Shown here: positions 3,166 through 20,430 of the stretch, piece after piece
Layout of the letters: every line of letters starts with the position of its first letter
Numbering within the stretch: the stretch's first letter is position 1
Source of the DNA: a virus
Taxonomy: Duplodnaviria > Heunggongvirae > Uroviricota > Caudoviricetes
Strand: one strand, 5' to 3'
IMG/VR virus record: IMGVR_UViG_2541047888_000001
DNA length: 20,430 nt
The notes under the pieces: generated by a model
The model's database searches: none
Seen by the model: only the letters and a program-made list of their open reading frames with translations
Told to the model about the DNA's origin: nothing
Made by a program: the position numbers and the translations under genes

Positions 3166-3251
3166 GGCGTATTCGACATTTGACGCAAATAAAACTCTCG
3201 CCATTCGTTGCAGGAGGGGGTTATTGCGTCATTAGTACAGGATATTAATAA

Positions 3252-3886: not shown

Positions 3887-3898
3887 CGGAGACTGAAA

Positions 3899-4907: not shown

Positions 4908-5968
4908 CCGCCCAGAAGAAGACATTTTCACTGGCTGGTATGTCGCCAAAATCCAGCAATATGACAGCAAAGTCAGGCATTAATACAGCAGATACAAGCA
5001 AAGTTTATCATTTGCTGGTGGTAGGAGCGGATGCCTTAACTATGTCAGAAATTACGGTCGATGGTGTTAGCGTTGAGAAGGTCAGCGGCTGCGCCAGAGA
5101 ATTTCTGGTCGTAGATGGCTTTCTCTGCTCGCGTAGTGACTCCACAAAAACCTTCGTCCACGCGCGTGACGTTAACGAAATGAGCGCGATGTACTGTGCT
5201 TCTGGTTCTTCCAATAGTGAGTTTTCGGAGTCCATAAAAAAGAGCTTGCCGTTATGCGGCAACACGGTTTATGGTTATAAGGCACCTCATAAAACGGGTG
5301 CCGGGATTGGCGTCCTGGTAAATCGAATGGCGACATATGACGCGCCGAGCGTCTTTTTTTATGTCGTAGGTCTGACTCACCCATTTTTTGGGCGTTGGTG
5401 TATAATCCAGCGCCTTTGTCAATCAATGGTGGCTCAGGCAGGGGCTTCTTCGGAAGCGCCGGTATCCATTCGAGCCGGTTACGCCAACCCTGTCTGGGCT
5501 ACCACCAGCGAAATTGGCGTTTCCGGTGGTAGCGTTACATGCTATCGAATGGAGGCTGCCACATGCTGGCTACTACCCCTACCCAAAAACCGCAATTTAT
5601 CTGGATTATCGCCGCAGTTCGCCGCGATTGCCCGACAATTACCGCCAAAATTCATCATATTGCTGCCGAGTCTGAACGCGATGCTCGCCGTTCTCTGGTG
5701 CGCGATCACGTCTGCTTTTTTGCTGGTCGTATCCGCATGGAGGTGGCACATGATTAAAACCTACGATGTGCATATGGATCCCCTCGAACGCACAAGCCAG
5801 ATCATCACACTGACAGAAGTGATTAACGACATTCTGGTGAGCAACTCTCCCTCACGAGACGAAAGACTGAAGGCGTTACTCGCGATATTGGATCTCGCCG
5901 TTCGTGACGTTCATTTCCTGCTGGAAGGTGGCGAAATGCCAGTAAAAACGGGGGAAACCAATGAATAA
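4901..5968 (+). CDS. long ORF of uncertain validity (355 aa frame); N-terminal ~220 codons possibly real, remainder overprinted by the icd-like gene and containing an internal start at 5750
   Basis: GGAGG RBS 8 nt before ATG 4901 and coupling to the upstream gene argue for a real start; the segment overlapping 5563-5757 translates to an implausible peptide in this frame; no in-frame stop until 5968. Confidence 0.3.
5563..5757 (+). CDS. Icd-like (host cell division inhibitor-like) small protein
   Basis: 64 aa from ATG 5563 with GGAGG 7 nt upstream; [24 protein letters not shown]...[22 protein letters not shown] resembles Icd-like proteins of P4-type elements; stop overlaps the next start (ATGA). 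Confidence 0.6.
   Translation: MLATTPTQKPQFIWIIAAVRRDCPTITAKIHHIAAESERDARRSLVRDHVCFFAGRIRMEVAHD
5750..5968 (+). CDS. small hypothetical protein (72 aa)
   Basis: ATG 5750 preceded by GGAGGTGGCAC, nearly the same RBS context as the icd-like gene; coupled to the next ORF. Confidence 0.45.
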   Translation: MIKTYDVHMDPLERTSQIITLTEVINDILVSNSPSRDERLKALLAILDLAVRDVHFLLEGGEMPVKTGETNE

Positions 5969-6155
5969 CTCAATTAATACCCCTCGCCTTACGTCCGCAC
6001 TTCAATTAATCGAGCAAGCAGCGGCTGTCCTGGTTGCTGTCAGTCTTTCGGCTGAAGAAATGGACGCTACTGATGTCGTGGATGCGATTAAAGCGTGCTC
6101 ATCTTTGGTTAACGATGCCCGTGCAGAGCTGGTAATTCTTGGGGGTGAAAAATGA
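5961..6155 (+). CDS. small hypothetical protein (64 aa)
   Basis: Overlapping start/stop with neighbours; GGGGGAA RBS. Confidence 0.5.
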   Translation: MNNSINTPRLTSALQLIEQAAAVLVAVSLSAEEMDATDVVDAIKACSSLVNDARAELVILGGEK

Positions 6156-6415
6156 ATATCAACTTAATTTATCGTCATCCGTGTGAGCTGGAAATTGAAT
6201 CATTGCTGAGCCGTGAAGAGCCATATCCAGACACATTCACTCTTGCAGATCGCACGACTGAACGGCTTACCAGAGCGCGCACAGGTCTGGTTCATGTGAT
6301 GAATGAGATTCTTCCATCGGTGGGAGGGGAACAGGCGACAGTAATCACTAGCTGGCTACAAAAAGTTACCTCTCTGATAGATATCAGTTTAATCGATGCG
6401 GAGAGTGCGAAATGA
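6152..6415 (+). CDS. small hypothetical protein (87 aa)
   Basis: ATGA overlap with the previous stop; GGGGGTG RBS. Confidence 0.5.
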   Translation: MNINLIYRHPCELEIESLLSREEPYPDTFTLADRTTERLTRARTGLVHVMNEILPSVGGEQATVITSWLQKVTSLIDISLIDAESAK

Positions 6416-6633
6416 CCAACATCCAGCTCATTGAAGCGCAATGTCGCATCGAACAGGTTCAGACTGTTTTAGGGTTCTGGCTTGAAGGGGCCAGCCCCAG
6501 CAACAGAGACAAGTTAATGATTGGCGCGGTTATGTCACTGCTCAATGGCGTACCAGAAGCTATTCAGGAAGCAGACGAATTGTTGGGCAAATATGAGTTA
6601 CAGAATCATTCAGGCGAGGCGAAACATGAATAA
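6412..6633 (+). CDS. small hypothetical protein (73 aa)
   Basis: ATGA overlap with the previous ORF; same-strand operon. Confidence 0.5.
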   Translation: MTNIQLIEAQCRIEQVQTVLGFWLEGASPSNRDKLMIGAVMSLLNGVPEAIQEADELLGKYELQNHSGEAKHE

Positions 6634-7228
6634 TTTCTTAACTTTCCATGCAGAAGCAACGCCTGACGGCGTAAACATCATGCACCGCAGCAACGATGGC
6701 ATGACAGAACGCGTTGAGACCGTCTCATATATTGATGCCGTAAATCGTCTGGATGCCGGGGATTATGACGATAAACCAGATGAAGGCATGTCAATACATC
6801 TCGCTATAGCCGATGGCGGCAACCAGGGATATTTCGATTACACATCACAGCATAACGTCATTATGTGGAGATGGCTGATCGCAACAGTATTCATGCTGGA
6901 AATGAGAGAGGAAAACGGCACTGTCAGCATCATTGATGATACTGGCAATCCTTCCGAAGTGGCTGTTTATTCCAACGGCATCGTCGCCATGCCGCTGTAT
7001 CCAGTAGCAGAGCGCCTCGCTATGGCAAACAACATTGAGGGCGCGATGATAGAACGTTTTGGCATCGAGTCTGGCACAGAACGCGCCATCATTTTCTACA
7101 GAGCCATGATGGATGTGGAACAAGGAGCACTGACTCCATTTGGTCGTGAAACGCTTGCTGAACTTCACAACAGCTTTATAGCTGAACTGAATGAAAACGG
7201 CATGCCAGCGGAACCAGTGACGCACTGA
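6626..7228 (+). CDS. hypothetical protein (~200 aa from ATG 6626; the ORF track extends to 6521)
   Basis: ATG 6626 overlaps the upstream stop and has GAGG upstream; the N-terminal extension from 6521 looks non-protein-like. Confidence 0.55.
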   Translation: MNNFLTFHAEATPDGVNIMHRSNDGMTERVETVSYIDAVNRLDAGDYDDKPDEGMSIHLAIADGGNQGYFDYTSQHNVIMWRWLIATVFMLEMREENGTVSIIDDTGNPSEVAVYSNGIVAMPLYPVAERLAMANNIEGAMIERFGIESGTERAIIFYRAMMDVEQGALTPFGRETLAELHNSFIAELNENGMPAEPVTH

Positions 7229-7238
7229 GGATGGAGCC

Positions 7239-7580
7239 ATGATTACTAAAAATTTCCGACTGAATGCGCTGGCAAATAAGTATGCGTCGGCACTGTATAA
7301 CCACATTACCTCCACCAGCGGCGGGGACTATTTCATGGTTGATGCGGACGGCGAGGCCGTACGTGTGGAAATCGTCAATGGAGTAAAAGGCGTTCGCAGC
7401 CTGATCGATAGCTACACACTGGCAGCCATGAAAGTGTTCTACCCGCAGTGGGAAACCGTGGGGATCGAGCTTCTTGAGCGTTGCGTCACTAAGGACGGAT
7501 TGACTGACGTCGGGCGTGAGATATGGCAAAGCATGGTTAATGACATGGGCGCAACTGTAGCGGGAGGTTCTCATGCGTGA
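7239..7580 (+). CDS. hypothetical protein (113 aa)
   Basis: GAGGATGGAG RBS; coupled to the next gene. Confidence 0.55.
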   Translation: MITKNFRLNALANKYASALYNHITSTSGGDYFMVDADGEAVRVEIVNGVKGVRSLIDSYTLAAMKVFYPQWETVGIELLERCVTKDGLTDVGREIWQSMVNDMGATVAGGSHA

Positions 7581-7944
7581 AAATGCAGAAATGGCGCTTA
7601 GCTCCGCAATCGGAGAGCAGGTGGCAAAGATTGCTGGTGCTGTGTGGATTCATAACCTTCATTCTACTGGTGAAGAGAAAATGGCAATTCAGACGCCAGA
7701 GGGACGCACCATTACTACATCTCTGAAGCCGTCAGATGTTTGTGATCTGATTTGCGCATTCATGTACCCAGCAATGAGGACTGTCCACGGCGATAAGTGG
7801 AAACTTGCGACAACCGCTGAATTTGATATGTGGCTAAACAATGATGGCATGCTGACTGATTACGGAATAACCAAGTGGCAGATGCTGGTTAGCCATATCG
7901 CAAACGCTATAGACCACGTGGGGTACGGTGATGCGAAACATTGA
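7573..7944 (+). CDS. hypothetical protein (123 aa)
   Basis: GGGAGG RBS; stop overlaps the primase start. Confidence 0.55.
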   Translation: MRENAEMALSSAIGEQVAKIAGAVWIHNLHSTGEEKMAIQTPEGRTITTSLKPSDVCDLICAFMYPAMRTVHGDKWKLATTAEFDMWLNNDGMLTDYGITKWQMLVSHIANAIDHVGYGDAKH

Positions 7945-10687
7945 TCTTATCCGTCAGGTTATCAGTGCGTCTGAAAACAACTGGCCTCATGTGCTGGGCT
8001 GCCTGAACATAAATGTCCCTGACTCTCCGCGCCGTCATGCTCCCTGCCCTGCATGTGGGGGCAAAGATCGATTCCGGTTCGATGACAACGGGCGCGGTAG
8101 CTTCATCTGTAATCAGTGCGGCGCTGGTGATGGGCTGGATTTAATTAAACGCGTAAATAACTGCGACACAACAGAGGCGGCGCTTCTTGCCGCTGATGTT
8201 CTGGGTATTGATTACCGGACAACGGAAACACCAGAAGCCACCAGCCAGAAACGGGAACAACTGGAAACCGAGCGCCAGCGACGCGAACAGGAGCGCCTGA
8301 AAAGGGCAGAGAAGGACGAACAACAAAGACGGGATACGTTTTCCCGTCAGTTTGATGACATGCGCAGAAAGGCTGTAAACGGCAAATCTGATTATCTGGT
8401 TGCGAAAGGGGTAGGTGATTTTACATTCCCCGTGTTGCCCGATGGATCTCTGTTGCTGGCGCTGGTGGATAAATCCGGCGCAGTCACAGCAGCACAGACT
8501 ATTACCTCACATGGTGAAAAAAGACTCCTGAGAGGTTCAGCAAAGCGGGGGGCATATCACGCCATAAACGCGCCAGAAACAACACAGAGCATCTTAATTA
8601 CAGAAGGGCTGGCAACGGCATTATCTGCCCATTTAATTCGTCCAGAGGCGCTGACAGTGGCGGCGATTGATGCCGGGAACCTGTTATATGTCGCCCAGGT
8701 ACTGCGGGATAAATTTCCTTCAGCACAAATCATCATTGCTGCGGATAACGACCACAGCGAAGGAAGACAAAACACGGGGAGAATAGCAGCAGAAAAAGCA
8801 GCTTTATCTGTTTCTGGATGGGTGGCATTACCCCAGACAGATCACAAAGCAGACTGGAATGATTACCACCAAAAACACGGCATTAAATGCGCCACAGAAG
8901 CGTTCAATAAGTCAATGTACCAACCACAGGGTAATGGCGTGAAACAGGAGCCACAGACCATTGAGGGAAGCGATTTTAAGGTTATGGATACCGACCCACT
9001 GAAACCAAGAATAGAAAGCCGCGAGGATGGTATTTATTGGGTATCTCCGAGAGCTGACAGCCAGAGTGGAGAAATCATCAATAACGAAAGCTGGTTATGT
9101 TCTCCGTTAAGCGTTATCGGTACTGGCAGAGACGATAAAGACCAGTATCTCATTCTTCGCTGGCTGTCGTTTGGTTCTGAAACGCCGACAACCGCTGCCA
9201 TTCCACTGGCTGATATTGGTGAACGTGAAGGATGGCGCACACTTAAAGCTGGTGGGGTAAATGTCACGACCAAAAGCAGCCTCAGAGCAATACTGGCAGA
9301 CTGGCTACAACGCAGTGGCTCTCGTGAATTGTGGCGTGTTGCTCATGCCACTGGCTGGCAATGCGGAGCGTACATCATGCCTGATGGGGAAATCATCGGA
9401 ACACCTGAAAATCCTGTGCTGTTCAGCGGGAGAAGCTCAGCCGCAGCCGGATATACCGTCTCAGGGAGCGCGAAAAGCTGGCGTGATAACGTGGCGCGTC
9501 TGGCCTTTGGTAACTATTCAATGATGACCGGGATCGGCGCAGCACTGGCAGCGCCATTGATTGGGCTGGTGGGCGCTGACGGGTTCGGCATTCATTTCTA
9601 TGAGCAGTCGAGCGCAGGTAAGACCACCACGGCAAACGTGGCGAGCAGCTTATACGGCAACCCTGATTTACTGCGGCTGACGTGGTACGGAACCGCGCTG
9701 GGGCTGGCAAATGAGGCCGCCGCCCACAATGACGGACTAATGCCGCTTGATGAAGTTGGTCAGGGCGCTGATCCTGTCAGCGTTTCACAGTCTGCCTATG
9801 CGTTATTTAACGGTGTAGGGAAACTGCAAGGCGCTAAAGATGGTGGAAACCGGGATCTAAAACGCTGGCGTACAGTGGCAATCAGCACCGGAGAAATGGA
9901 TTTAGAAACATTTATCGCTACTTCCGGGCGAAAAACCAAAGCCGGGCAACTGGTGCGACTGCTGAATATTCCGTTGAGTAAAGCAGTACGCTTTCACGAT
10001 TACCAGAACGGAAAACAGCACGCAGACGCACTGAAAGACGCTTACCAGCATCACCACGGCGCGTCCGGGCGTGAGTGGATTAAATGGCTGGCAGACCACC
10101 AGCAACAGGCTATTAAAACCGTTCGTGACTGCGAAAGCAGATGGAGAAGCCTGATCCCATCCGATTATGGTGAGCAGGTTCACCGTGTAGCCGCGCGATT
10201 TGCCATTCTGGAGGCCGCATTGTTGTTAGGCGAGGTTGTAACAGGCTGGGATGCTCAGACATGCCGTGATGCGATACAGCACAGCTATAACGCATGGTTG
10301 CGCGAGTTCGGCACAGGTAACAAAGAGCATCAGCAGATTATTGAACAAACGGAGGCATTTCTTAATGCCTATGGGCTTAGCCGTTTTGCACCATTTCCAT
10401 ACAGCCCGGCAGATTTGCCCATCAAAGATTTAGCCGGATACCGTCAGCGTGGAGAACATGACGAAAGCCCAATGATTTTCTACACATTCCCGGCCACATT
10501 TGAAAAGGAGATCGCATGTGGTTTCAACGCAAAACAGTTTGCTGAAGTGTTGAAAAAAGCCGGGATGCTAACCCCACCAAACAGCGGTCGTGGATACCAA
10601 AGAAAATCACCACGTATTCAGGGACGACAAATAAACGTTTATGTACTCAATTACCAGCCAGGAGATTATAACTCATCTGAAGAATGA
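7931..10687 (+). CDS. P4 alpha-like DNA primase/helicase (N-terminal Cys4 zinc ribbon, Toprim domain, C-terminal P-loop NTPase)
   Basis: ~918 aa; CPACGG...CNQCG zinc ribbon (about nt 8045-8120); Toprim signatures ILITEGLATA and AADNDHSEG; P-loop-like YEQSSAGKTT; start could be GTG 7928 or ATG 7931. Confidence 0.85.
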   Translation: MRNIDLIRQVISASENNWPHVLGCLNINVPDSPRRHAPCPACGGKDRFRFDDNGRGSFICNQCGAGDGLDLIKRVNNCDTTEAALLAADVLGIDYRTTETPEATSQKREQLETERQRREQERLKRAEKDEQQRRDTFSRQFDDMRRKAVNGKSDYLVAKGVGDFTFPVLPDGSLLLALVDKSGAVTAAQTITSHGEKRLLRGSAKRGAYHAINAPETTQSILITEGLATALSAHLIRPEALTVAAIDAGNLLYVAQVLRDKFPSAQIIIAADNDHSEGRQNTGRIAAEKAALSVSGWVALPQTDHKADWNDYHQKHGIKCATEAFNKSMYQPQGNGVKQEPQTIEGSDFKVMDTDPLKPRIESREDGIYWVSPRADSQSGEIINNESWLCSPLSVIGTGRDDKDQYLILRWLSFGSETPTTAAIPLADIGEREGWRTLKAGGVNVTTKSSLRAILADWLQRSGSRELWRVAHATGWQCGAYIMPDGEIIGTPENPVLFSGRSSAAAGYTVSGSAKSWRDNVARLAFGNYSMMTGIGAALAAPLIGLVGADGFGIHFYEQSSAGKTTTANVASSLYGNPDLLRLTWYGTALGLANEAAAHNDGLMPLDEVGQGADPVSVSQSAYALFNGVGKLQGAKDGGNRDLKRWRTVAISTGEMDLETFIATSGRKTKAGQLVRLLNIPLSKAVRFHDYQNGKQHADALKDAYQHHHGASGREWIKWLADHQQQAIKTVRDCESRWRSLIPSDYGEQVHRVAARFAILEAALLLGEVVTGWDAQTCRDAIQHSYNAWLREFGTGNKEHQQIIEQTEAFLNAYGLSRFAPFPYSPADLPIKDLAGYRQRGEHDESPMIFYTFPATFEKEIACGFNAKQFAEVLKKAGMLTPPNSGRGYQRKSPRIQGRQINVYVLNYQPGDYNSSEE

Positions 10688-10712
10688 GCTTCTTCATGTG
10701 CGTAGAAAAGGT

Positions 10713-10823
10713 GTTGGTTCAGTTGGTTCAGTTGGTTCAATTTGTAAAGAGTATTGTTTTATAAGGATTTTATTCTTTTTATTGAACCAACACTGAACCA
10801 ACAACACGGTATTTTGAACCAAC
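10713..10823. repeat. Iteron-like array A: 3 tandem GTTGGTTCA, AT-rich spacer, 3 inverted TGAACCAAC
   Basis: Perfect 9-mers at 10713-10721, 10722-10730, 10731-10739 and inverted copies at 10783-10791, 10794-10802, 10815-10823, separated by ~43 bp of AT-rich DNA; directly downstream of the primase gene. Confidence 0.7.
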
Positions 10824-10875
10824 ACAATGTGACTGAATTGATGCGCACAACACCTGGCTGGCATCAGAGAGTGTT

Positions 10876-10949
10876 TTACGAGACTTTCGTAAAATCCTGT
10901 GTACAAGGGCGTGACGTTTTTGAAAGTGAGCACTACGAAATTTTCGTAG
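10876..10949. promoter_or_regulatory. Two palindromic operator-like sites TACGA-N5-TCGTA
   Basis: TTACGAGACTTTCGTAA (10876-10892) and CTACGAAATTTTCGTAG (10933-10949); identical half-sites and spacing, ~57 bp apart. Confidence 0.4.
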
Positions 10950-11143
10950 TTCAGAAAACAGCCTCTGAGAAGTTGTTATGCCTGTTCAGCAAACCATCCG
11001 CATAGCTGATCGCGAATCAAATTACCAATGGAGCCAGAAGCAAGGGCAGAACTGAAAAGCGCCTGCCGTGAAGAGTAATGCGACACCATAAATATAGTTT
11101 TTAGAGTCCATAAAAAACCTGTCAAAACCTGACACACAGAACG

Positions 11144-11177
11144 ATGCCACCAGCTACTGAGCGGTGGCATTTTTTTG
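11144..11177 (+). terminator. Rho-independent terminator-like hairpin
   Basis: ATGCCACC-(11 nt loop)-GGTGGCAT followed by a T run (TTTTTT at 11171-11176). Confidence 0.6.
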
Positions 11178-11271
11178 TGCTATTTGTTTCATATTTTGCA
11201 ATTACGATGATGAATATTGCGATTTGTGAAACTATAATAACTGTTGTTTTATACAGTTCTAAGGGGGCGTT

Positions 11272-11433
11272 ATGGCTATTTCAGTAAAGCCGGTATTGAT
11301 AAGTGAGAAGCAAATGGAAGCGATAAAGAAAATTCAGGAAGAGCAGCGTAAAAAATCAGGAATTGGAGTAGCGCCAACTCTGCATGAAATTGCACGAGGG
11401 TTAATAGATAAGGCGCTGGCAGGCTGTATGTGA
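11272..11433 (+). CDS. small protein (53 aa), possible ribbon-helix-helix DNA-binding protein; not in the supplied ORF track (<60 aa)
   Basis: ATG 11272 preceded by AAGGGGG; TATAAT at 11233-11238 upstream; sequence MAISVKPVLISEKQMEAIKKIQEEQRKKSGIGVAPTLHEIARGLIDKALAGCM has a beta-strand plus two helices pattern; first gene of the downstream operon. Confidence 0.45.
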   Translation: MAISVKPVLISEKQMEAIKKIQEEQRKKSGIGVAPTLHEIARGLIDKALAGCM

Positions 11434-11449
11434 AAATGGATGGCATCGC

Positions 11450-11911
11450 ATGGAACTAAAATTTATTGATAACCCTGTGCGATTACAGGCCTTTCTTAAC
11501 GAGCCAGGCAATACCGAAAATATTGTTGAGCCGGGGCACACGTACTACATCAAGCCTGATGCGGTATATCTCGGCATCTACGAAGGATTAGTGCTGGCTG
11601 GCGTTCATGAAGTGCGTAACTTCTGGCATAGCGTTGTTGAATGCCATGCGGTGTACGACCCCGGATTCCGTGGTGAATATGCACTGCAAGGACATCGATT
11701 ATTCTGCAAATGGCTTCTCGAAAACTCACCATTCCTTAACAGCATCACTATGGTTCCTGACACCACGAAATACGGACGGGCAATTATCCGTTTGCTTGGC
11801 GCTACCCGTGTTGGTCACCTTGATGATGCTTATATCAGATGTGGTAAACCCGTCGGCGTAACGCTTTATCAGTTAACTCGGCAACAATATAAGGAATTCA
11901 GCGAATGTTAA
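11450..11911 (+). CDS. hypothetical protein (153 aa)
   Basis: ORF with GGATGG upstream; stop overlaps the start of the next gene (ATGTTAA); no family recognised. Confidence 0.65.
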   Translation: MELKFIDNPVRLQAFLNEPGNTENIVEPGHTYYIKPDAVYLGIYEGLVLAGVHEVRNFWHSVVECHAVYDPGFRGEYALQGHRLFCKWLLENSPFLNSITMVPDTTKYGRAIIRLLGATRVGHLDDAYIRCGKPVGVTLYQLTRQQYKEFSEC

Positions 11912-12582
11912 TTACCCATATAGCTCATAAACATCTCAATCGTGCCGTATACGAAAAAGGCGGTGATGGTGGTGCCTCTAAAGCTCAGGCGAAGGCCCAG
12001 CAGCAGGCAATTGATTTGCAGCGCGAGCAGTGGAATACGGTGATGAATAATCTCAAGCCGTATGCAGAAGTCGGATTGCCTGCTTTACAACAACTACAAG
12101 GACTGATGACTCTGGAAGGGCAGAATAAAGCCGCGAATGATTTCTTTGGTTCTGGTTTATATAAAACACAGGCAGATCAGGCCCGTTATCAGAACCTTGT
12201 CTCAGCAGAAGCTACCGGGGGGCTTGGCTCAACAGCTACCAGTAACCAGTTATCTTCCATTGCGCCCATGCTTTATAACAATTGGCTTAGTGGGCAAATG
12301 CAAAATTATGGAAACCTGCTAAATGTCGGGATGAATGCGGCATCAGGGCAGGCAACGGCAGGGCAAAACTACGCCAATAATACCGGACAACTCTTGCAGG
12401 GGCTTGGCGCTATTCGTGCAGGTCAGGCGCAGCAGCCATCCAGTCTTGCGCGTGGTATTGGTGGGGCAGCATCAGGCGCTTTAGCGGGTGCGCAACTTGG
12501 TTCCGTTGTTCCTGGAATAGGAACTGCGGCCGGCGCTATTGGTGGTGGGCTTATTGGTCTTGTTGGGGGGCTTGGATTCTAA
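11905..12582 (+). CDS. low-complexity Gln/Ala/Gly-rich protein (225 aa) with C-terminal glycine-zipper hydrophobic segment; possible phage ejection-protein-like (size comparable to P22 gp7)
   Basis: Translationally coupled at both ends; C-terminus GAASGALAGAQLGSVVPGIGTAAGAIGGGLIGLVGGLGF; the ejection-protein link is an inference from size, order and composition only. Confidence 0.7.
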   Translation: MLITHIAHKHLNRAVYEKGGDGGASKAQAKAQQQAIDLQREQWNTVMNNLKPYAEVGLPALQQLQGLMTLEGQNKAANDFFGSGLYKTQADQARYQNLVSAEATGGLGSTATSNQLSSIAPMLYNNWLSGQMQNYGNLLNVGMNAASGQATAGQNYANNTGQLLQGLGAIRAGQAQQPSSLARGIGGAASGALAGAQLGSVVPGIGTAAGAIGGGLIGLVGGLGF

Positions 12583-14003
12583 TGGCGACATGGCAACTTG
12601 GCGGGCTGCCTAGCATGGCACCGCAAAATGATAATGCTCCTCGTTCTTCCGTTCCTCAGCCTGTGCAGTATCAGCAGCAGCCAAACGTAGGTTTAATGGC
12701 GCTACAGGGGCTAAGAGGCGTTGCTGAGATTAATCAGCAGGCACGTCAACAACAGCGTAAAGCAGAGTTTCAGAAAGCATATGCCGGGGCTTTTGAGTCT
12801 GGAGACAGAAACAAAATGCGCAGTCTTATTTCTGAGTATCCAGAAGAATTTGAAAGCGTTCAGAAAGGGATGGGCTTTATTGATGACGACCAGAGAAATT
12901 CTATTGGTCATCTTGCGACTAGTGCTCAAATCGCATCTTCGCTCGGAACTGGGGCATTTGGAAAATTCATAGCAGATAACGAAGATGAAATGCGTCGCTT
13001 GGGAATTTCTCCTGAGTCTGTTGCCGAAATGCATGTTAATGATCCACAGGGGTTCCAGCGGCTTGCTGGTAGTATGGCACTGTTTTCTCTCGGTCATGAG
13101 AAGTATTTCGATATCAAAGATCAAATGGAAGGTCGGGATATTGAGCGTGGCAAGTTGGCAGAAACAATCCGCAGCAATCAGGCTGGCGAAGCACTTCAGG
13201 CGAGAGGGCAGGATATTAGCCGAGCAAATGCGTTAACGTCAGCATATGCACCAACAGCAGCAATGCAGAATTACAATCAGTACGCTCAAATGTTAAAGGC
13301 GGATCCAGAGGGGGCGGCGGCATTTGCGGCAGCGGCTGGAATTAATACAAACGCCAAAAAATTAATGAGTGTTAGAGAAAACGATGATGGCACTGTCACA
13401 AAATACTACACAGACGGAAGTGAAGAGCAGGGAAAACTAAACCAGCCAATATCTGGAGATGGGTTTCGTCCAATAGCTTTGCCAACAGCCCAAAAGATCA
13501 TGGAAAAGTCGCCAGAAGGGGCTAAAAAAGCTGCTGGATTTGCATACAGGGTTAGGGATGCTCTTGATTCAATAGATACACTGAAAGACCAGCTTAGCCC
13601 ACAGCGAGTGGCGATCATTAATAATGCTTTGGGTAATGGGACGCTGGCTAACTTAACGCTCAGCCCAACAGAACAGCAATACGTTGTTAATGCTAATGAC
13701 GCAATAATGGCAATACTCCGTCAGGAAACAGGGGCAGCCATCGTACCTGCTGAAATGTCAAAATATTATCAAATGTATTTCCCTCAGCCTGGCGACTCCA
13801 CAAAAACCATTGATACCAAGCGCCGGAAGATGGAAAACCAGTTCAATTCGCTGAAAGCTGCTTCTGGTCGAGCTTATGATGCTTTGCGGGTTATTTCAGC
13901 AGTTGACAGAGGAACTTCTTCTTCGTCGCAGACATTGCCGCAATCTGAGCAGGTATCACAGCCAGCAGCCAGCAGTAACTTTTCTTCACTATGGGGTGAT
14001 TAA
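12582..14003 (+). CDS. hydrophilic Gln/Ala-rich protein (473 aa); possible ejection-protein-like (size comparable to P22 gp20)
   Basis: TAATG coupling at both ends; long ORF with protein-like composition; no catalytic motif recognised. Confidence 0.75.
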   Translation: MATWQLGGLPSMAPQNDNAPRSSVPQPVQYQQQPNVGLMALQGLRGVAEINQQARQQQRKAEFQKAYAGAFESGDRNKMRSLISEYPEEFESVQKGMGFIDDDQRNSIGHLATSAQIASSLGTGAFGKFIADNEDEMRRLGISPESVAEMHVNDPQGFQRLAGSMALFSLGHEKYFDIKDQMEGRDIERGKLAETIRSNQAGEALQARGQDISRANALTSAYAPTAAMQNYNQYAQMLKADPEGAAAFAAAAGINTNAKKLMSVRENDDGTVTKYYTDGSEEQGKLNQPISGDGFRPIALPTAQKIMEKSPEGAKKAAGFAYRVRDALDSIDTLKDQLSPQRVAIINNALGNGTLANLTLSPTEQQYVVNANDAIMAILRQETGAAIVPAEMSKYYQMYFPQPGDSTKTIDTKRRKMENQFNSLKAASGRAYDALRVISAVDRGTSSSSQTLPQSEQVSQPAASSNFSSLWGD

Positions 14004-16108
14004 TGGCTAAAGCATGGAAAGATGTTATCGCCTCTCCACAGTATCAGGCGTTAGCACCAGAACAAAAAGCGCAGGCTCAGGAGCAATACTTCAATGAAGT
14101 CGTGGCCTCGCAAGCCGGAGAAAGTGTAGAGCAGGCTAAGCAGGCTTTTTATGCTGCCTATCCACTACCATCAACGAATGAAATAGACCGATCCCAATCA
14201 GCAACTCAAAATATTCAACATACATCATCTGATAATTCTCTTGCGTCAGGGTATGCAAAGTTAGCTACTCAGCAAAGAGAGGGGCTTGAGCGTTCAGCAG
14301 AACAGGGAGCCAGTCTTGGGGCTGCGATGCGCGATGCTATAACAGGCGAAAGCCGAATGACTCCAGAGATGGAGAGACTGCAAAATGTCGACCTTGCCCC
14401 AGAGTTAACCTCACTCAGCATGGATGCTCTAAAAGCTCGATGGTCTCAACTTTTCGGCTCTGACGCATCTCAGGAAAAGATTCTTCAGAGCATGGGAGCG
14501 AAATTAAGGCAGGATGAGAAGGGTAACACTATCGTTTCCCTGCCATCCGGTGATTATGCTCTGAACAAGCCGGGTTTATCGCCGCAAGACGTGGCATCGT
14601 TTCTGGCTAATGCGCTGGCGTTTACACCAGCGGGCAGGGCTGGAACGGTGCTTGGTGCCATAGGAAAATCAGCAGCTACAGATTTAGCACTACAGGGAGC
14701 CACTAGCCTTGCTGGTGGAGAAGATATTGATCCGTTACAAACGGTAATTTCTGCTGGCATTGGTGGTATTGGTAAGGGGCTGGAAAATACAGCGAGTGCG
14801 GTTTCGAGGGCTGTTCGTGGTGATATGTCGCCTGAAGCAAAGGCTGCTGTCGACTTTGCATCGGAAAGAAATCTGCCGTTAATGACCAGTGACATGCTAA
14901 AAGATAAAACCTTTATGCAGAGTCAGGCTCAGACATTAGGCGAAAGAGTTCCTTTTTTTGGAACCGGTAAGAATCGGCTGAATCAACAACAAGCACGAGA
15001 AAATTTAGTCAGAACATTTAGCGATGGTCTGGGTGGCATTTCTGATAAACAGCTTTATGAATCTGCGACTAAAGGGCAACAAAAATTCATTGAGGCAGCA
15101 GGAAAGCGATATAACCGCATAATTGACGCTATGGGGGATACCCCTGTCGATCTCTCAAACACGGTAAAAGCTATCGACAATCAGATTGCCGTGTTAAGCC
15201 GCCCGGGCAAATCTCAGGATAGAGCCGCGGTAAAAGTCTTGCAGCAATTTAAAGACGATATCACCAGCGGACCAAATGACCTGCGTCTGGCGAGGGAAAA
15301 CAGAACCGATCTTCGAAAGCGATTTATGGCGTCATCTGACACTGTTGATAAAGATACGCTCCAGAAAGCCAGCGATATTATCTACAAGGCATATACGGCG
15401 GATATGAAAAAAGCCGTAGCCAAAAATCTTGGAGCAGACGAAGCCATTAATATGGCAAGGGTTGATCGCTCATGGTCTAAATTTAATGACATGATGGGAA
15501 GAACGCGCGTTCAAAAGGCAATAGCCAGCGGCAAGGCCACGCCTGAGGATGTAACAAAACTCGTTTTTAGCCAAAACCCATCAGAACGTTCTCAGCTTTA
15601 CAGGCTTCTGGATGACAATGGTAGGCAAAACGCACGAGCAGCCATAGTTCAGAATGCTGTAGATAAGGCGACTGATCCGTCTGGAAATATCAGTGTTGAG
15701 AAGTTTATTAATGCGTTACACCGGAACAGGAAGCAATCAGCAACTTTCTTTAAAGGCGTACATGGAAAGGAACTGGACGGCGTTATTAAATACCTCAACG
15801 ATACAAGACACGCGGCAAAAGCGAACGTTCAAAACTTAAATGGTCAGCAGCTTTATGGTTTGTTAGTTGGTGGTGGCATCATAAACGCAGCAGTATTAGC
15901 GGGGATGCTAAAAACGGCTGCGTTTGTTGTTCCTGCTGCTGGTGCCGTAGGCGGAGCAGCGAAGGCATACGAAAGCCCTGTTATACGAAATGCCTTGTTA
16001 CGTCTGGCAAATACGCCAAAAGGTAGCACAGCATATGACAGAGCGATCAGTACGGTCACACAATCGCTCACCAGAGTCGCACAGGCATCACAAAAAGAAG
16101 CTCAATAA
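14003..16108 (+). CDS. large Gln/Ala-rich protein (701 aa) with C-terminal hydrophobic Gly/Ala segment; possible ejection-protein-like (comparable to P22 gp16)
   Basis: TAATG-coupled to the upstream gene; C-terminal LYGLLVGGGIINAAVLAGMLKTAAFVVPAAGAVGGAAKAY putative membrane-interacting segment. Confidence 0.75.
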   Translation: MAKAWKDVIASPQYQALAPEQKAQAQEQYFNEVVASQAGESVEQAKQAFYAAYPLPSTNEIDRSQSATQNIQHTSSDNSLASGYAKLATQQREGLERSAEQGASLGAAMRDAITGESRMTPEMERLQNVDLAPELTSLSMDALKARWSQLFGSDASQEKILQSMGAKLRQDEKGNTIVSLPSGDYALNKPGLSPQDVASFLANALAFTPAGRAGTVLGAIGKSAATDLALQGATSLAGGEDIDPLQTVISAGIGGIGKGLENTASAVSRAVRGDMSPEAKAAVDFASERNLPLMTSDMLKDKTFMQSQAQTLGERVPFFGTGKNRLNQQQARENLVRTFSDGLGGISDKQLYESATKGQQKFIEAAGKRYNRIIDAMGDTPVDLSNTVKAIDNQIAVLSRPGKSQDRAAVKVLQQFKDDITSGPNDLRLARENRTDLRKRFMASSDTVDKDTLQKASDIIYKAYTADMKKAVAKNLGADEAINMARVDRSWSKFNDMMGRTRVQKAIASGKATPEDVTKLVFSQNPSERSQLYRLLDDNGRQNARAAIVQNAVDKATDPSGNISVEKFINALHRNRKQSATFFKGVHGKELDGVIKYLNDTRHAAKANVQNLNGQQLYGLLVGGGIINAAVLAGMLKTAAFVVPAAGAVGGAAKAYESPVIRNALLRLANTPKGSTAYDRAISTVTQSLTRVAQASQKEAQ

Positions 16109-16127
16109 CTGGTTAGCCATGGATGGC

Positions 16128-16742
16128 TTAGATATCTCTGCTGTCTCCATTAGGAAATAAAAGATAATATGGATTTGCCTTTCTTGCTCTCCTTGCTTCA
16201 CCTGGATACCTGTTAGTCAGTAGCTTGCATAATGAGCAGAGAACAACACTCAAGAAAATTCCGAATGAGAAGATCAATATCTCACCAAAAATCAATGGCG
16301 ATATTAAATTTTCAGGATTTAATGATAAGTCAATGTTAAAAACATATTGAGCAATACCAGTAAGTATCAATAATATAATCCCTATGGAATACATTGCTGT
16401 TTCCCAAACATCAGACAGTCTATTTTTGAATTGTTCGCTGGAGTAGTAGTTTGTTATAAAGTCAGAAAAATCACTCTCATATGCATCATCTTTAGGTGAT
16501 GTTAGAAATCCTCTGTCTCTCCATACCTTCTCCCAATTAGTCGATTCTTTTTTTAAGGAAAAATAAATATGTATTGCCAAAAGGATAGCCAAAATTGGTG
16601 TTAGCTCTAAAAAATAGAATGTTATGGAATAAATAATACTGCCATGTTCAAACTCATCTGGGACTATCATGTATGCACAAAAATAAATTGAAAAGTACAC
16701 CATGCAGATAGTTAGCAATTCTTTAGTATCTTTTCTGCTCAC
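16128..16742 (-). CDS. AT-rich integral membrane protein (204 aa, ~4 predicted TM helices), unknown function
   Basis: GTG start preceded by AAGGGGG on the minus strand; four hydrophobic stretches (e.g. LLTICMVYFSIYFCAYMIV, IIYSITFYFLELTPILAILLAIHIYF); markedly lower GC than flanking genes; convergent with the 701 aa gene. Confidence 0.7.
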   Translation of the reverse strand: MSRKDTKELLTICMVYFSIYFCAYMIVPDEFEHGSIIYSITFYFLELTPILAILLAIHIYFSLKKESTNWEKVWRDRGFLTSPKDDAYESDFSDFITNYYSSEQFKNRLSDVWETAMYSIGIILLILTGIAQYVFNIDLSLNPENLISPLIFGEILIFSFGIFLSVVLCSLCKLLTNRYPGEARRARKANPYYLLFPNGDSRDI

Positions 16743-16932
16743 ACCAACCCCCTTTAGCGTTGTTTAGAATGGCAATCATCATATATCCAAGACATGGCAT
16801 TTGGTACATAGCTTGGGTCGGGATTTCAAATCCGCCCCCGTTGATGGGGTCGTTACAGTACGCGCATATCCGCTTTATGTGAAACAGGAAGATTTTTCTG
16901 ATATCACTGCCACAGCAAAACACCAATTTCGA

Positions 16933-17232
16933 GACAAGTACGCGCGCGAGGGGTATCAGTTGCAAAATTTTTTGCAGCTGCGTCCGACCAGTACGCACAC
17001 GATGGCGGGGAGCAGCATAAAACTGTTCTCTACATAGACAGAGTGGTGGTGATGTGTTGATTATCGGCGTATATGCGCACAGGACGCGCTATGACGATGT
17101 TTTATGCGGGTACACCAATCACATGTATCTGATGTGATAAATCGTGTTACATGACATCTCATGTTGTGCTGGTGGTTATCACGACGTTCTGAATCTGGCC
17201 TTTGCCTGATATTTTGCGACAAGTACGCGCGC
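16933..17232. repeat. 16 bp direct repeat GACAAGTACGCGCGCG (two copies) within the long non-coding region
   Basis: Copies at 16933-16948 and 17217-17232; palindrome TGCAAAATTTTTTGCA at 16962-16977 lies between them. Confidence 0.4.
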
Positions 17233-17383
17233 GTAGCATCGAAATTATCGGATGGCGTATGCTGCTGGCAATATGAAGACCGATAGTATTAACCGAAAAG
17301 CGATTAAGGAGTGCCAACTTTTCAGTAGAGAAACTAGCCAGCACAGGGAAATGTAGAAATTACCCAATTAATAGGTAAAAGTT

Positions 17384-17500
17384 ATTGACACACCCTGTAG
17401 TGGATAACGATATGAATAAAAACCACATATAGTGGTTTTTCGTTAGTGATGATAGTATCTATGTTAGTTTCCTAAGTAACTGTGCATTGACATGTGGATA
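17384..17500. promoter_or_regulatory. Duplicated TTGACA + DnaA-box-like (TGTGGATAA / AGTGGATAA) elements flanking a hairpin, upstream of the Abi gene
   Basis: TTGACA 17384-17389 with AGTGGATAA 17398-17406; TTGACA 17486-17491 with TGTGGATAA 17492-17500 (reverse complement of the DnaA box TTATCCACA); hairpin AAAAACCAC-ATATA-GTGGTTTTT at 17417-17439. Confidence 0.35.
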
Positions 17501-17612
17501 ACTTCGGATAGAGTTACAATCAACTGAGCCCGGCCCCCTGGCTTTATCTTGTCTTAGATGAGAAATTGTTATGGCCGGGCCTTCTTGTATCTGGAGGTAG
17601 GAAACCTTTTGT

Positions 17613-18575
17613 ATGGCTGTTCCGGTTAAGGTTCATAAAGAATATGATGAACTTGTCGATTTATTGCTGTCTCGGGGTATGGATGTGCCAGATCGCGAAC
17701 ATGCTATCAAGAAAATCTCACAAGTAGGCTACTACCGATTATCAGGCTTTTGGTACCCCTGCCGAATCCCCCATATAACAACAGACAATATTAGAACCAG
17801 ACTCGATCAGGTTCGTCCAGGTACTAATTTTCGCGCAGTATATGACCTCTATTTATTCGATAAAAATCTGCGTTTGCAGATGATGAATGCGTTAGAACGC
17901 ATTGAGGTTTATGTTCGGTCAGTTATTGCTCATGAGCTTGGTAAGATATCTCCTTTAGCATATCTTGATGACTCGCTAATAAATCCAAAACACTTTAGAC
18001 CACGTTCCCATGGTCGCCCAAGCGCCAGAGAAGAATGGATAAATAAACATAATGCCGAGATTGCTAAAAGTCGCGAAGACTTTATCAAATGGCATGAAAA
18101 CAAGTACGAAGGTCTTCCTTTCTGGGTGGTTATTGAAGTGTGGGACTTCGGCTTAATGTCAAAGTATTATGCGATGCTAAAAGACAGCTATCGCAACAGG
18201 ATACTATCTAGGCTAGGGATAGCGGCAGGCAATGGAGCTATCTTCCAAAACTGGCTTAGCGCAATGAATGTGCTAAGGAATCGGTGCGCTCACCATTCAC
18301 GCATCTGGAACAAGGTCAACGAACCAAGATTAATGCCTTTGCCAAATGAGCCGTACTTTGAACAATTAAATATGAATGATGATGCGTACGAAAGAATGTA
18401 CGGAATGATCGCTGTGTTATGGTTTTTAGTGAAAAAAATTGGACCGGGATCTGACTGGATAAAAAAAGTTGCCAACCTTGTAGATAACAAGCCTAACTTA
18501 CCAGGATGTAACCTGACAGCCATGGGATTACCTGATAATAACGGTTTCCCAAGGCATTTATTTGATATTGAATAA
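17613..18575 (+). CDS. Abi_2 family (AbiD/AbiF-like) abortive-infection protein, predicted HEPN domain
   Basis: 320 aa; GGAGG RBS; family-typical motifs ISQVGYYRLSGFWYP, FDKNLR, PFWVVIEVWDFG and the HEPN Rx4H motif RNRCAHH (about nt 18276-18296). Confidence 0.8.
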   Translation: MAVPVKVHKEYDELVDLLLSRGMDVPDREHAIKKISQVGYYRLSGFWYPCRIPHITTDNIRTRLDQVRPGTNFRAVYDLYLFDKNLRLQMMNALERIEVYVRSVIAHELGKISPLAYLDDSLINPKHFRPRSHGRPSAREEWINKHNAEIAKSREDFIKWHENKYEGLPFWVVIEVWDFGLMSKYYAMLKDSYRNRILSRLGIAAGNGAIFQNWLSAMNVLRNRCAHHSRIWNKVNEPRLMPLPNEPYFEQLNMNDDAYERMYGMIAVLWFLVKKIGPGSDWIKKVANLVDNKPNLPGCNLTAMGLPDNNGFPRHLFDIE

Positions 18576-18576
18576 A

Positions 18577-19032
18577 TTATAGCGATGGCGCTGAATGTAG
18601 CGCCACTGATAACTTTTCAGCATTGCTTCCCTGACGCTTCCACGCGCTATAAATATCTTTATCCCATGCCTTACCAGCTTTTGTTTGATAGCCTGCTTCA
18701 TTGATCCGTTCAGCTATCACGCGCCCATTATCAAATCCCTGTCGGATGGTATCGGCAATGATCTTTATAACTGCCGTTTCGTTATATGGCTTTGGTGGGA
18801 TGTTCGGCTTTCCGGCAATAAGCGACGCAGCGGCTTTTTCCATGCGCTCCACCAGCCCAAGCATTCGTGAATCAATAGACTTTTCCGGCTGTCCCAGCTT
18901 CATGCGAATCGCATCAACAAGCCAGGAGGTTTTATCCCCTCCAGAAGCGAGAACAGACCGATTAAACTCATCCTGCAATTCAGATGGGATGCGGAACGCG
19001 ACCAGATTAGATTTGCTCATTGCAAAGACCAT
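18577..19032 (-). CDS. ribbon-helix-helix domain protein (151 aa), putative transcriptional regulator
   Basis: N-terminus SNLVAFRIPSELQDEFNRSVLASGGDKTSWLVDAIRMKL fits the RHH (CopG/Arc/MetJ) pattern; weak RBS; convergent with and abutting the Abi gene. Confidence 0.6.
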   Translation of the reverse strand: MVFAMSKSNLVAFRIPSELQDEFNRSVLASGGDKTSWLVDAIRMKLGQPEKSIDSRMLGLVERMEKAAASLIAGKPNIPPKPYNETAVIKIIADTIRQGFDNGRVIAERINEAGYQTKAGKAWDKDIYSAWKRQGSNAEKLSVALHSAPSL

Positions 19033-19050
19033 ATCAGTGAGTAATATCCA

Positions 19051-19067
19051 TACAGTATACCACTGTA
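19051..19067. promoter_or_regulatory. Palindromic operator-like site TACAGT-N5-ACTGTA upstream of the minus-strand RHH gene
   Basis: Read directly from the sequence; lies ~20-35 bp upstream of the RHH gene start; followed by a CACTGT(T)ATA direct repeat. Confidence 0.35.
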
Positions 19068-19134
19068 TAACACTGTTATACGCTCAAATATTAGCCAGAA
19101 AATAACGGACCAATCACAAAGCTATCGCTGTGTT

Positions 19135-19255
19135 GTTGGTTCAGAGCTGGGCTGTGTTGGTTCAAAATGAGTTGATGTTGGTTCAATATTTCAGAAAAAA
19201 CACAATAAAAACAACGATCTTTACAAATTGAACCAACTGAACCAACTGAACAAAC
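19135..19255. repeat. Iteron-like array B: 3 spaced GTTGGTTCA, AT-rich spacer, 3 tandem TGAACCAAC (inverted relative to array A)
   Basis: GTTGGTTCA at 19135-19143, 19156-19164, 19177-19185; TGAACCAAC at 19229-19237, 19238-19246 and degenerate TGAACAAAC at 19247-19255; the reverse complement aligns with array A including the spacer start ATTTGTAAAGA. Confidence 0.7.
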
Positions 19256-19291
19256 ACCTTTTTGCTTATCTATATAATCTGAGAGGCAGAA

Positions 19292-19579
19292 ATGATAAGG
19301 GACAGGAAAGCTGAAGAACTGGAGTCAAAAGGGCTATACCGGAGAGCTGCCGCACGATGGGCAGAAGTCATGATGCTGGCAGATGGCGATAAAGAACGTG
19401 AACATGCAGCAAACAGACGCTCTGAATGTATCCGTAAGGCGGCACGCCCACCAGCAACTACAGACAGATTCGGAGATTTAAGACAGGCAGTTAAGCGGAC
19501 TCATTCGGCTCTTGGTATGGATGAGGAAGCGAGAGGGTACTTCAGGCGTTATCGCGATAAAGATTGCCAGAGACAGTAA
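19292..19579 (+). CDS. PerC-family transcriptional regulator-like protein (95 aa)
   Basis: N-terminus MIRDRKAEELESKGLYRRAAARWAEVMM resembles the PerC/Pch family pattern (AE.LE.KGL.RRAA.RW.EVM); GAGAGG RBS. Confidence 0.6.
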   Translation: MIRDRKAEELESKGLYRRAAARWAEVMMLADGDKEREHAANRRSECIRKAARPPATTDRFGDLRQAVKRTHSALGMDEEARGYFRRYRDKDCQRQ

Positions 19580-19920
19580 TGCTCTCTCTGTTTTGGCAAA
19601 TTACCCCTCACTTTGAAGGGATCGGAGCTATAAAAATGGTGTTATCCGGCTTCCTGCATTGCAGGTTTTCGAAAGAATCAATGGGTTAGGTCATCGTGCA
19701 AATTTGCACTCTGCCAGCCAACGCAATTTCTCGTTGGCGGAAATATCAGGTATTTACTGAACGAACGGTCTACCCGCCTGTTCAACTACCAGTTGTACAT
19801 GGCTGCTTTATGTGCAAATGGTGGTGAGAGAAAATTGTTTGGGGGTACTTTTGGGGGTGTCTCCAAAGATGTAACGTGAAAATATCTTTATATATCAATG
19901 TATTTTTATTGTTTGTTTTG

Positions 19921-19939
19921 TTCCTATTATCGCACCATT
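19921..19939. other. attR of island 1 / attL of the tandem second island (partial tRNA-Thr 3' end copy)
   Basis: TCCTATTATCGCACCATTC matches tRNA 3' end 1428-1447 with a single G deletion; followed by a sequence homologous to the island-1 int-proximal region. Confidence 0.6.
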
Positions 19940-20091
19940 CTAACGTCTCCCCAAGTCTACTCAAGTATTTAAAAACCTCTTATAATCAGTATATTAATGC
20001 CCCTTTTAGTCTTTTGACGTCTATTTAAGTACCCCAAACTCTACAAGCAATTGAGGGGATTTGCTGTTCAGTTTAGTGGAGATACCCCCAA

Positions 20092-20430
20092 GTGAAACTC
20101 AATGCCCGTCAAATAGACACTGCCAAGCCAAAAGAGAAGGCTTACAAGTTGGCTGATGGTGGTGGTCTGTACCTCCTGGTAAAACCTGGTGGAGGAGAAT
20201 ATTGGCGTCTCAAGTATCGTGTAGCTGGTAAAGAGAAGCTGTTAGCACTAGGTGTGTATCCTGAGGTCACCTTAGCTGATGCTCCTGCAAAACTTGAAGA
20301 AGCTAAAAGAGGTATCTCTGGGGGAATCGATCTGATGGAAGTGAAGCGAGAGGAAAAGATTGCCCGGGAAACGCAGTTAAACAACACCTTCAAAGATATT
20401 GCCCTTGAGTGGCACAGTAACAAATTATAA
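20092..20430 (+). CDS. int: second P4-type integrase, N-terminal portion (GTG start); in-frame TAA at codon 113 at the window edge, possibly disrupted
   Basis: 112 aa, ~92% identical by eye to the island-1 integrase N-terminus; island 1 reads AGC AAA TTA AAA AAA TGG here, island 2 reads AAC AAA TTA TAA. Confidence 0.6.
   Translation: MKLNARQIDTAKPKEKAYKLADGGGLYLLVKPGGGEYWRLKYRVAGKEKLLALGVYPEVTLADAPAKLEEAKRGISGGIDLMEVKREEKIARETQLNNTFKDIALEWHSNKL

Follow-up and report, generated by a model that had tools for sequence, protein, structure and literature searches.

A probable distant homologue of the SieA superinfection exclusion proteins in an exchangeable slot after gene 16 of an EcCIMP1-type PICI

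The SieA protein of phage P22 was reportedly the subject of a study by Hofer et al. in 1995. SieA is among the few defences known to work while phage DNA is being injected, and the way in which it recognizes very different ejection proteins is still a question (PMC10883804). Its effect on growth is minimal and it prevents entry, and escape from SieA maps to gp16 and gp20 (PMC10883804). The three types of SieA, A, B and C, share about 25% identity and have the motif FxRYPxEAxxFNK in common; type A has three TM helices, and types B and C have four with a cytoplasmic N-terminus (PMC10883804). Types A and B, very different as they are, share a broad specificity against divergent ejection proteins, and the type B SieA of prophage HS1 is experimentally active (PMC10883804). 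In E. coli and Salmonella only types A or B are reported, in P22-like prophages in every case examined, and MU9_2893 and HMPREF1563_1315 are the examples of type C named by Leavitt et al. 2024 (PMC10883804).

Another described system close to the locus presented here is the phage-inducible chromosomal island (PICI) EcCIMP1 of E. coli MP1 (Pick, Stadel and Raivio 2025), for which induction and transfer by Kapi1, a phage closely related to P22, were shown (PMC11773190). EcCIMP1 adds superinfection immunity against Kapi1, and no known system was detected in it with PADLOC or DefenseFinder; SieA is unmentioned in that paper, and the ejection proteins are loosely identified (PMC11773190).

The stretch of DNA analysed in this work, 20,430 nucleotides of the IMG/VR virus record IMGVR_UViG_2541047888_000001 (the window), carries an island of the same kind. 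The 3' end of tRNA-Thr(CGT) with some downstream bases forms attL (1428-1478, forward strand) and is repeated over about 50 nt at attR (19922-19975, forward strand), such that the island spans about 1428-19975 (18.5 kb); in genomes without it, tRNA-Thr is joined directly to the second integrase. The island genes include those for an integrase, AlpA, the AntA antirepressor, an Ash protein and a TOPRIM/DUF927 primase, together with the isrK and C4 antisense RNAs, and it also holds a DUF2824 gene, three ejection-protein genes, the sieA-like gene that is the subject of this work, an AbiD-family gene and PerC. Genes for coat, portal, terminase, tail or lysis functions are absent from the window and from its E. 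coli relatives. The carrier is an 18.5-kb EcCIMP1-type PICI at tRNA-Thr, not a prophage, and residence in a P22-like prophage, a contextual and not a molecular feature of SieA, does not extend to the window.

From the integrase to the start of the gp20 gene (1254-12742), the window is 98.1% identical in DNA to EcCIMP1 of E. coli MP1 (PMC11773190), and both have the proA/tRNA-Thr site, the 510-bp spacer, the PerC homologue and the second integrase. Unlike the window, EcCIMP1 has another C-terminal part of gp20, a 906-aa type of gp16 and, after gp16, a co-oriented gene for a 232-aa lipoprotein instead of the sieA-like gene. Since EcCIMP1 lacks the sieA-like gene and has the lipoprotein gene in its place, its immunity is not attributable to a sieA-like protein.

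The sieA-like CDS is an intact ORF of 204 aa located at 16128-16742 on the minus strand. It starts with GTG, and the Shine-Dalgarno sequence AAGGGGG (16748-16754, minus strand) lies 5 nt before it; the minus-strand bases that lead into the start are TAAAGGGGGTTGGT, followed by the GTG. An upstream ATG is in frame in the allele P0105 (218 aa) and out of frame in this window. The K/R-rich N-terminal segment and E7 of the protein are conserved in homologues from other genera, and GTG is the sole start common to both kinds of allele; for these reasons the GTG appears to be the right start. The AAGGG(A/G)GG-GTG junction is shared with the cassettes that stand in for the gene in E. coli 042 and EcPF7. 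The gene has a GC content of 0.330 (GC3 0.307) vs 0.472 for the window and 0.47 for the neighbouring gp16 gene; of all 615-bp stretches in the 20.4 kb it has the lowest GC (z = -3.3; 0.04% are as low), and the fall in GC matches the borders of the ORF. Its stop codon and that of the convergent 701-aa gene are 19 nt apart. Thus, what the initial annotation had read from the letters, namely a GTG-start gene with a strong ribosome-binding site, of lower GC than its neighbours and placed immediately downstream of and convergent with the 701-aa gene, was borne out on each point.

About four hydrophobic helices had also been proposed, and a prediction of the TM topology agrees with it. The hydrophobic segments at residues 9-27, 36-61, 115-135 and 147-172 (Kyte-Doolittle) coincide with helices 2-25, 34-75, 101-134 and 146-175 of an AF2 model, and from the numbers of K+R per loop, 3/0/8/0/7, the protein is predicted to be N-in/C-in. 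The predicted cytoplasmic loop (62-114) ends in YSSEQFKNRLSD and the predicted cytoplasmic C-tail contains TNRYPGEARRARK; the prediction thus puts the NRxSD helix as well as the RYPGEA tail on the cytoplasmic side. With a pLDDT of 72, the AF2 model is only of moderate quality; it gave no meaningful matches against BFVD and PDB, and therefore it provides no independent evidence on the fold, for or against. The profile of the protein found no relatives among the PDB sequences.

We then searched for remote relatives of the protein. BLASTP aligned 108 aa of it with P22 SieA at 29% identity (pairwise E 8e-8) and found a match to the type B SieA of prophage HS1 at 34% over 118 aa (E 2e-9), and hhalign of the profile of its clade against the P22-type (type A) SieA profile gave a probability of 96.1% (E 3.3e-9, 99 columns). 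The sole PHROG matched was phrog_7745, 'SieA-like' (4.4e-4), which was also matched, as the only PHROG, by the relatives P0003 (2e-6) and P0019 (5e-4). A phmmer search with the protein retrieved 22 proteins among 1.84 billion representatives; distant matches, such as P0022 (E 4.7e-9) and P0034, carry PF26849, a family that is precomputed on P22-type SieA also. The precomputed Pfam field is blank for the cluster of the sieA-like protein (P0001, P0002 and P0003) and filled for most other members of the family. No family reached the threshold in our own search of Pfam, in a copy without PF26849 that left P22 SieA likewise matchless, or in a search of NCBIfam, and 'hypothetical protein' is the NCBI name of every member of the clade. 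P0004, a chimeric ORF on an ENA contig of 670 bp, was left out of the analysis.

The invariant residues of the family point in the same direction. Only five or six columns are invariant in alignments of 24 and of 53 members of the SieA family, and the sieA-like protein keeps every family-invariant residue. N106, R107 and D110, in the NRxSD helix that directly precedes the penultimate TM helix, are invariant in both alignments, types A and B included, and R177, P179 and A182 of RYPGEA are invariant in the alignment of 53 sequences. Compared with the published motif FxRYPxEAxxFNK, the corresponding TNRYPGEARRARK keeps RYPxEA and the final K, and F1 and FN are changed. The similarity to SieA is confined to the C-terminal ~110 residues, and the first two helices of the sieA-like protein are unaligned. 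The initial annotation had proposed an analogue of P22 sieA; the hhalign, BLASTP and phmmer results, the match to phrog_7745, the kept motifs and the synteny point further, to a true homologue, and we consider it highly probable that the gene is a distant member of the SieA family.

In comparison with P22 SieA (type A), the protein has the same C-terminal module, composed of YSxExxxNRxSD, two TM helices and RYPGEA...K. Both are small inner-membrane proteins, in the case of the sieA-like protein by prediction, and both genes are convergent with gene 16, ~20 nt after it, and of low GC (0.337 in P22 vs 0.330). On the other hand, the sieA-like protein is only ~28% identical to P22 SieA over ~108 aa; it has one additional TM helix at the N-terminal end, its N-terminus being cytoplasmic by prediction, and its tail is longer by ~9 residues, and it is carried by a PICI instead of a P22-like prophage. 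The type B SieA of HS1 (EcHS_A0321) is like the sieA-like protein in its four TM helices, its N-terminal extension and its slot after gene 16; in the type B protein and in a Morganella group of sequences (P0027) the motif reads FNRYPGEAxxFNK vs TNRYPGEARRARK.

Pairwise scores place the clade of the sieA-like protein at 30-44 bits from type A, type B and the Morganella group (35-44 bits in the comparison made for type B and the Morganella group); A and B score 70-77 bits with each other, and B scores 103 bits with P0027; thus the clade is farther from types A and B than A is from B. The motif FxRYPxEAxxFNK fits types A and B and the P0027 group, and the clade has TNRYPGEARRARK instead. As the published motif fits P0027 along with A and B and does not fit the clade, the Morganella group probably corresponds to type C, and the clade itself probably represents an undescribed fourth type of SieA.

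The neighbourhood of the gene follows the genetic configuration of P22. In P22, sieA is located 22 nt after gene 16 and is convergent with it. The initial annotation had pointed to the place of P22 sieA next to the ejection-protein genes and had read an ejection-protein-like operon in the window, and the matches of the neighbouring genes confirm the nature of that operon. The 701-aa product of the adjacent gene (14003-16108, forward strand) is a P22 gp16-type ejection protein (phrog_770, 8e-161), and it is preceded on the same strand by genes for a gp20-type (12582-14003; PF16928, 4.5e-58) and a gp7-type ejection protein (11905-12582; PF25688, 6.6e-73) and for a DUF2824 protein (11450-11911; PF11039, 1.5e-61). 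DUF2824 occupies the position of gene 14 in the P22-like prophage HS1 and in the related locus L008, where the gene in this position is 81% identical to P22 gp14; the island copy of DUF2824 gave no match to P22 gp14 by tblastn. In the 19-nt gap between the sieA-like and gp16 genes there is a short hairpin, AGCCA-TGGA-TGGCT (16115-16128), which is kept in islands with other cassettes; a terminator scan found no canonical terminator there.

Relatives of the sieA-like protein were found in Citrobacter freundii (P0003, 50% identity), Serratia fonticola (P0019, 41%) and Providencia and Proteus (P0020, 35%). These, together with two IMG/VR contigs, sit in genuine P22-like prophages, with gene 16 on one side and mnt/arc/ant/tailspike on the other, and the slot after gene 16 is the same for the relatives at L004, L007, L008, L017 and L019 (33-50% identity). 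The island gp16 is 76% identical to the gp16 beside the 50%-identical SieA of Citrobacter and 30% identical to the gp16 of P22 and HS1. Over the series of loci, gp16 identities of 76, 65, 51, 35(-37) and 30% stand beside SieA identities of 50, 41, 33, 35 and about 28%, that is, the divergence of SieA tracks the type of the adjacent gp16. At the positions of gp16 where P22 escapes SieA, the equivalent of G532 is conserved and the position of P546 is variable in all lineages, a comparison that is uninformative at only 30% identity.

The slot after gp16 is filled by one or another of several small membrane-protein cassettes, which are interchangeable, and the sieA-like gene is among these. Strain A34 (NZ_CP028741) is an example of a natural carrier of the gene. 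The conserved region of 510 bp upstream of the gene was found in 523 of 5426 complete E. coli genomes; the sieA-like gene itself was found in 102 of the 5426, all copies being full-length at >=99% identity, a cassette of the 042 type, coding for an unrelated membrane protein of 129 aa, in 227, and a cassette of the EcPF7 type, coding for a small membrane protein of 131 aa, in 87. The junctions of the slot are sharp, with the hairpin after the gp16 stop on one side and the shared SD-GTG on the other. The cassette proteins of the 042 and EcPF7 types were considered as hidden relatives of SieA and rejected (hhalign probability 1.3%), and they gave no phage matches. At six related loci that were inspected, the sieA-like ORF was intact in all six, one of them with an in-frame deletion of 3 nt. 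The E. coli alleles are separated by one to three differences and distant pairs are saturated, so that dN/dS is not computable. In the O111:H8 strain 8E, gp16 is truncated by an IS3 element, the sieA-like gene is intact and there is no Abi_2 gene beside it; the persistence of the gene despite the truncated gp16 speaks in favour of a role that does not depend on the ejection-protein genes.

Outside this setting the gene was not encountered. A megablast search with the region and a tblastn search with the protein found nothing in 50,697 phage records, from which it appears that no sequenced phage isolate carries the clade, and the gene was absent from 185,579 species-representative genomes; all its occurrences were in mobile elements, next to gene 16. 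Two points of the initial annotation can be taken up here. Absence or pseudogenization in most related islands had been named as a finding that would speak against the proposal: the gene is indeed absent from most of them, with other genes in the slot, and at the loci examined the gene is intact, not pseudogenized. A separate horizontal acquisition, proposed from the base composition, is favoured by the exchangeable cassette with its sharp borders; on the other side, the divergence tracks the gp16 type, and low GC is found in other sieA genes as well (P22, 0.337; HS1, 0.363), being a trait of sieA genes generally.

Fixed slots with conserved flanks in which unrelated anti-phage cargo is swapped are also described for the defence hotspots of P4-like satellites and P2-like phages (Rousset et al. 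2022; PMC9122126), and in this respect the slot after gp16 is alike. Those hotspots belong to a different element family and to a different slot; the cargo of the slot described here consists of small membrane proteins, only one of them with a recognisable relative.

On the basis of its family membership and position, we think it likely that the sieA-like gene codes for an exclusion protein of the SieA family that would block DNA injection by P22-like phages at the inner membrane. By extension from what is described for SieA (PMC10883804), the resident island would express the protein in small amounts, and the protein would be inserted into the inner membrane. The gp20/gp16 conduit of an incoming P22-like phage would then be kept from delivering DNA across the inner membrane, and K+ likewise would not cross; the cell would survive with the phage genome left outside. 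Because the carrier is of a type mobilised by a P22-like phage, the gene would protect both the host and the island against superinfection by the kind of phage that the island parasitises.

A homologue of SieA could instead serve the life cycle of the island, by discriminating between conduits made of the gp16/gp20 of the island and those made of the gp16/gp20 of the helper, excluding competing islands or modulating the entry of island DNA, and not the defence of the host. The island does have its own gp14/7/20/16 genes, the divergence of SieA follows that of gp16, and SieA escape maps to gp16 and gp20 (PMC10883804); however, types A and B are equally broad against divergent ejection proteins, the same type of gp16 is accompanied by an unrelated cassette in E. 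coli 042, and in 8E the sieA-like gene persists where gp16 is destroyed, such that we regard a life-cycle role as unlikely. The retention of the gene in 8E bears also on the possibility that it is an inert passenger, the leftover of a captured P22-like segment (gp16 plus sieA) without a current function. Its presence in only ~20% of the islands with the conserved leader (102/523) would suit a passenger, as would an allelic variation too small for dN/dS, but the ORF is intact in 6/6 loci and full-length at >=99% identity in its 102 genome copies, its length and all the motif residues are kept in four genera at 33-50% identity, and the slot is otherwise filled by other intact membrane genes and not by debris; such a relic seems quite improbable to us.

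An abortive-infection membrane effector had been offered as an alternative to exclusion. In such a reading the protein would act at the membrane, as an abortive-infection or a toxic effector, to kill or depolarise infected cells, perhaps in concert with the Abi_2 gene nearby, and a small, multi-pass, low-GC membrane protein in a cargo region, beside an AbiD-family gene, would have the appearance of one. The Abi_2/AbiD-family gene (17613-18575, forward strand; PF07751, 3.6e-52; PADLOC AbiD, 2.7e-57) is nevertheless an independent variable cargo, on the opposite strand, 870 bp off across the conserved spacer, and absent in 8E. The sieA-like protein matched no PADLOC model, a result to be read with the fact that P22 SieA also lacks a PADLOC match, and hence that PADLOC does not cover SieA; its sole family tie is to SieA, which acts by blocking entry and affects growth minimally (PMC10883804). 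The effector alternative thus found no support, and we give it a very slim chance. As for a housekeeping transporter or an ordinary membrane protein unrelated to phages, homology to a transporter family had been named beforehand as the finding that would contradict the exclusion proposal, and all that could be cited in its favour was sub-threshold noise from Pfam and NCBIfam (MnhB, 0.018), with MnhB scoring 15.7 bits vs a cut-off of 22.5 and TIGR00943 13.9 vs 139.75. No Pfam or NCBIfam family reached its threshold, there are no PDB relatives, and the gene is restricted to mobile elements and missing from the 185,579 species-representative genomes. The transporter reading is effectively refuted by distribution and homology, and its probability is negligible.

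The likely role of the gene as a SieA-type exclusion protein can be extended to a wider scheme, which is doubtful and is put forward here as a tentative idea. The clade would be a fourth type of SieA and the first outside P22-like prophages, and the PICI slot after gp16 would serve as a hotspot in which envelope proteins that block injection are interchanged (the sieA-like, 042-type and PF7-type proteins and the EcCIMP1 lipoprotein), the cargo of which might explain the immunity of islands to P22-like helpers, with a specificity tuned to the gp16/gp20 type. A sieA-like gene on a PICI links two recent papers (PMC10883804; PMC11773190), and it is a candidate for the satellite-encoded exclusion of the type of phage that acts as helper, a phenotype described for EcCIMP1. 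In addition, the residues that can matter in SieA are narrowed down by a much more divergent clade in which the NRxSD helix and the RYPGEA tail alone are retained. Given the 'hypothetical' label, the blank precomputed Pfam field and the lack of a PADLOC model, annotation pipelines miss the gene in complete E. coli genomes, about 2% of which carry it.

The DNA upstream of the gene has a structure of its own. The conserved stretch of ~510 bp (16743-17250) is non-coding, >95% identical in islands with different cargo, and separates two variable cargo slots, the cassette after gp16 and, on its far side, the AbiD-family gene. Folding of this region on both strands gave z-scores of 0.02 and -1.16, with no signal of a structured RNA, and no Rfam family matched it. 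A promoter scan found no convincing site directly upstream of the sieA-like gene, and sites were not more frequent than in shuffled sequence; one match of 10/12 was located at 17271-17244 on the minus strand, ~500 nt upstream of the gene. The ORF at 16723-16998 (minus strand, 91 aa) is most likely spurious, having no family matches and being broken by indels among islands. An upstream ORF of 19 codons (MMIAILNNAKGGWCEQKRY; 16723-16782, minus strand) lies inside the conserved leader and overlaps the GTG of the sieA-like gene; in other alleles, e.g., P0105 (218 aa), it continues in frame into the cassette gene. Finally, the 510-bp region contains five same-strand repeats of the sequence (C/A)AGTACGCGC, at 16856, 16936, 16989, 17080 and 17221.

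The island (window 1428-19975) is a PICI of the EcCIMP1 type, an element for which yicC/dinD is a further site, and in its 'packaging module' clear homologues of genes 7, 20, and 16 of P22 are joined by a DUF2824 gene occupying the gene-14 position. Of the 5426 complete E. coli genomes, 398 cover at least 80% of the gp16-like gene. When the window is compared with the EcCIMP1 locus of E. coli MP1, the two are 98% identical as far as codon ~54 of gp20, whereas beyond this point they are unrelated up to the conserved spacer (differing region, 12743-16814). Because the identity ends near codon 54 and resumes at the spacer, the C-terminal part of gp20, gp16, and the downstream gene appear, from the alignment, to have been exchanged as a single block. 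The gp20 C-terminal part and gp16 are exactly where the SieA-escape mutations of P22 map.

Different genes follow gp16 in other islands. In the 042-type island, the gene encodes a small multi-TM protein of 129 aa (L011:8654-9043; 227 genomes), and in the EcPF7-type island one of 131 aa (L012:8649-9044; 87 genomes), the two proteins being weakly related to each other. EcCIMP1 itself has a gene co-oriented with gp16 for a lipoprotein of 232 aa with a LAGC lipobox (L022:11749-12447). None of the three matched a known family or a phage protein; all three are candidates for further entry-blocking proteins, and the immunity reported for EcCIMP1 may stem from the lipoprotein. As for the sieA-like gene, relatives with 37% identity were found in two IMG/VR contigs (L018:8001-8528 and L016:628-1155). 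The neighbours of the former resemble c2, gene 18, and gene 12, and gene 16 is not among them; this suggests that lambdoid phages have a second genomic site for SieA-like genes. L016 yielded no match to a P22 gene.

The non-coding conserved spacer (16743-17250, ~510 bp) is more than 95% identical across islands with different cargo on either side, and is contained in 523 of the 5426 genomes. It carries five iteron-like copies of (C/A)AGTACGCGC, all on one strand; a search of the spacer for an RNA-structure signal found none, and it has no ORF consistent among the islands. Its role could be that of an origin or crr-type site, of a region for regulator binding, or of a recombination anchor for the exchange of cargo. 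Across it, the second variable cargo slot is filled by an Abi_2/AbiD-family gene (17613-18575; PF07751, 3.6e-52; PADLOC AbiD, 2.7e-57), in place of which other islands have HTH or hypothetical genes.

The PICI also bears an RNA immunity module of the P1/P7/P4 type: isrK (5282-5359) and C4 antisense RNA (5422-5509), both above the Rfam gathering score, lie within or adjoining the Ash-family ORF and downstream of the AntA antirepressor. Directly after attR, a second integrase gene starts (20092-20430), and therefore the integrative elements at tRNA-Thr form a tandem array; the equivalent neighbour in MP1 is a degraded island carrying vat and marR.
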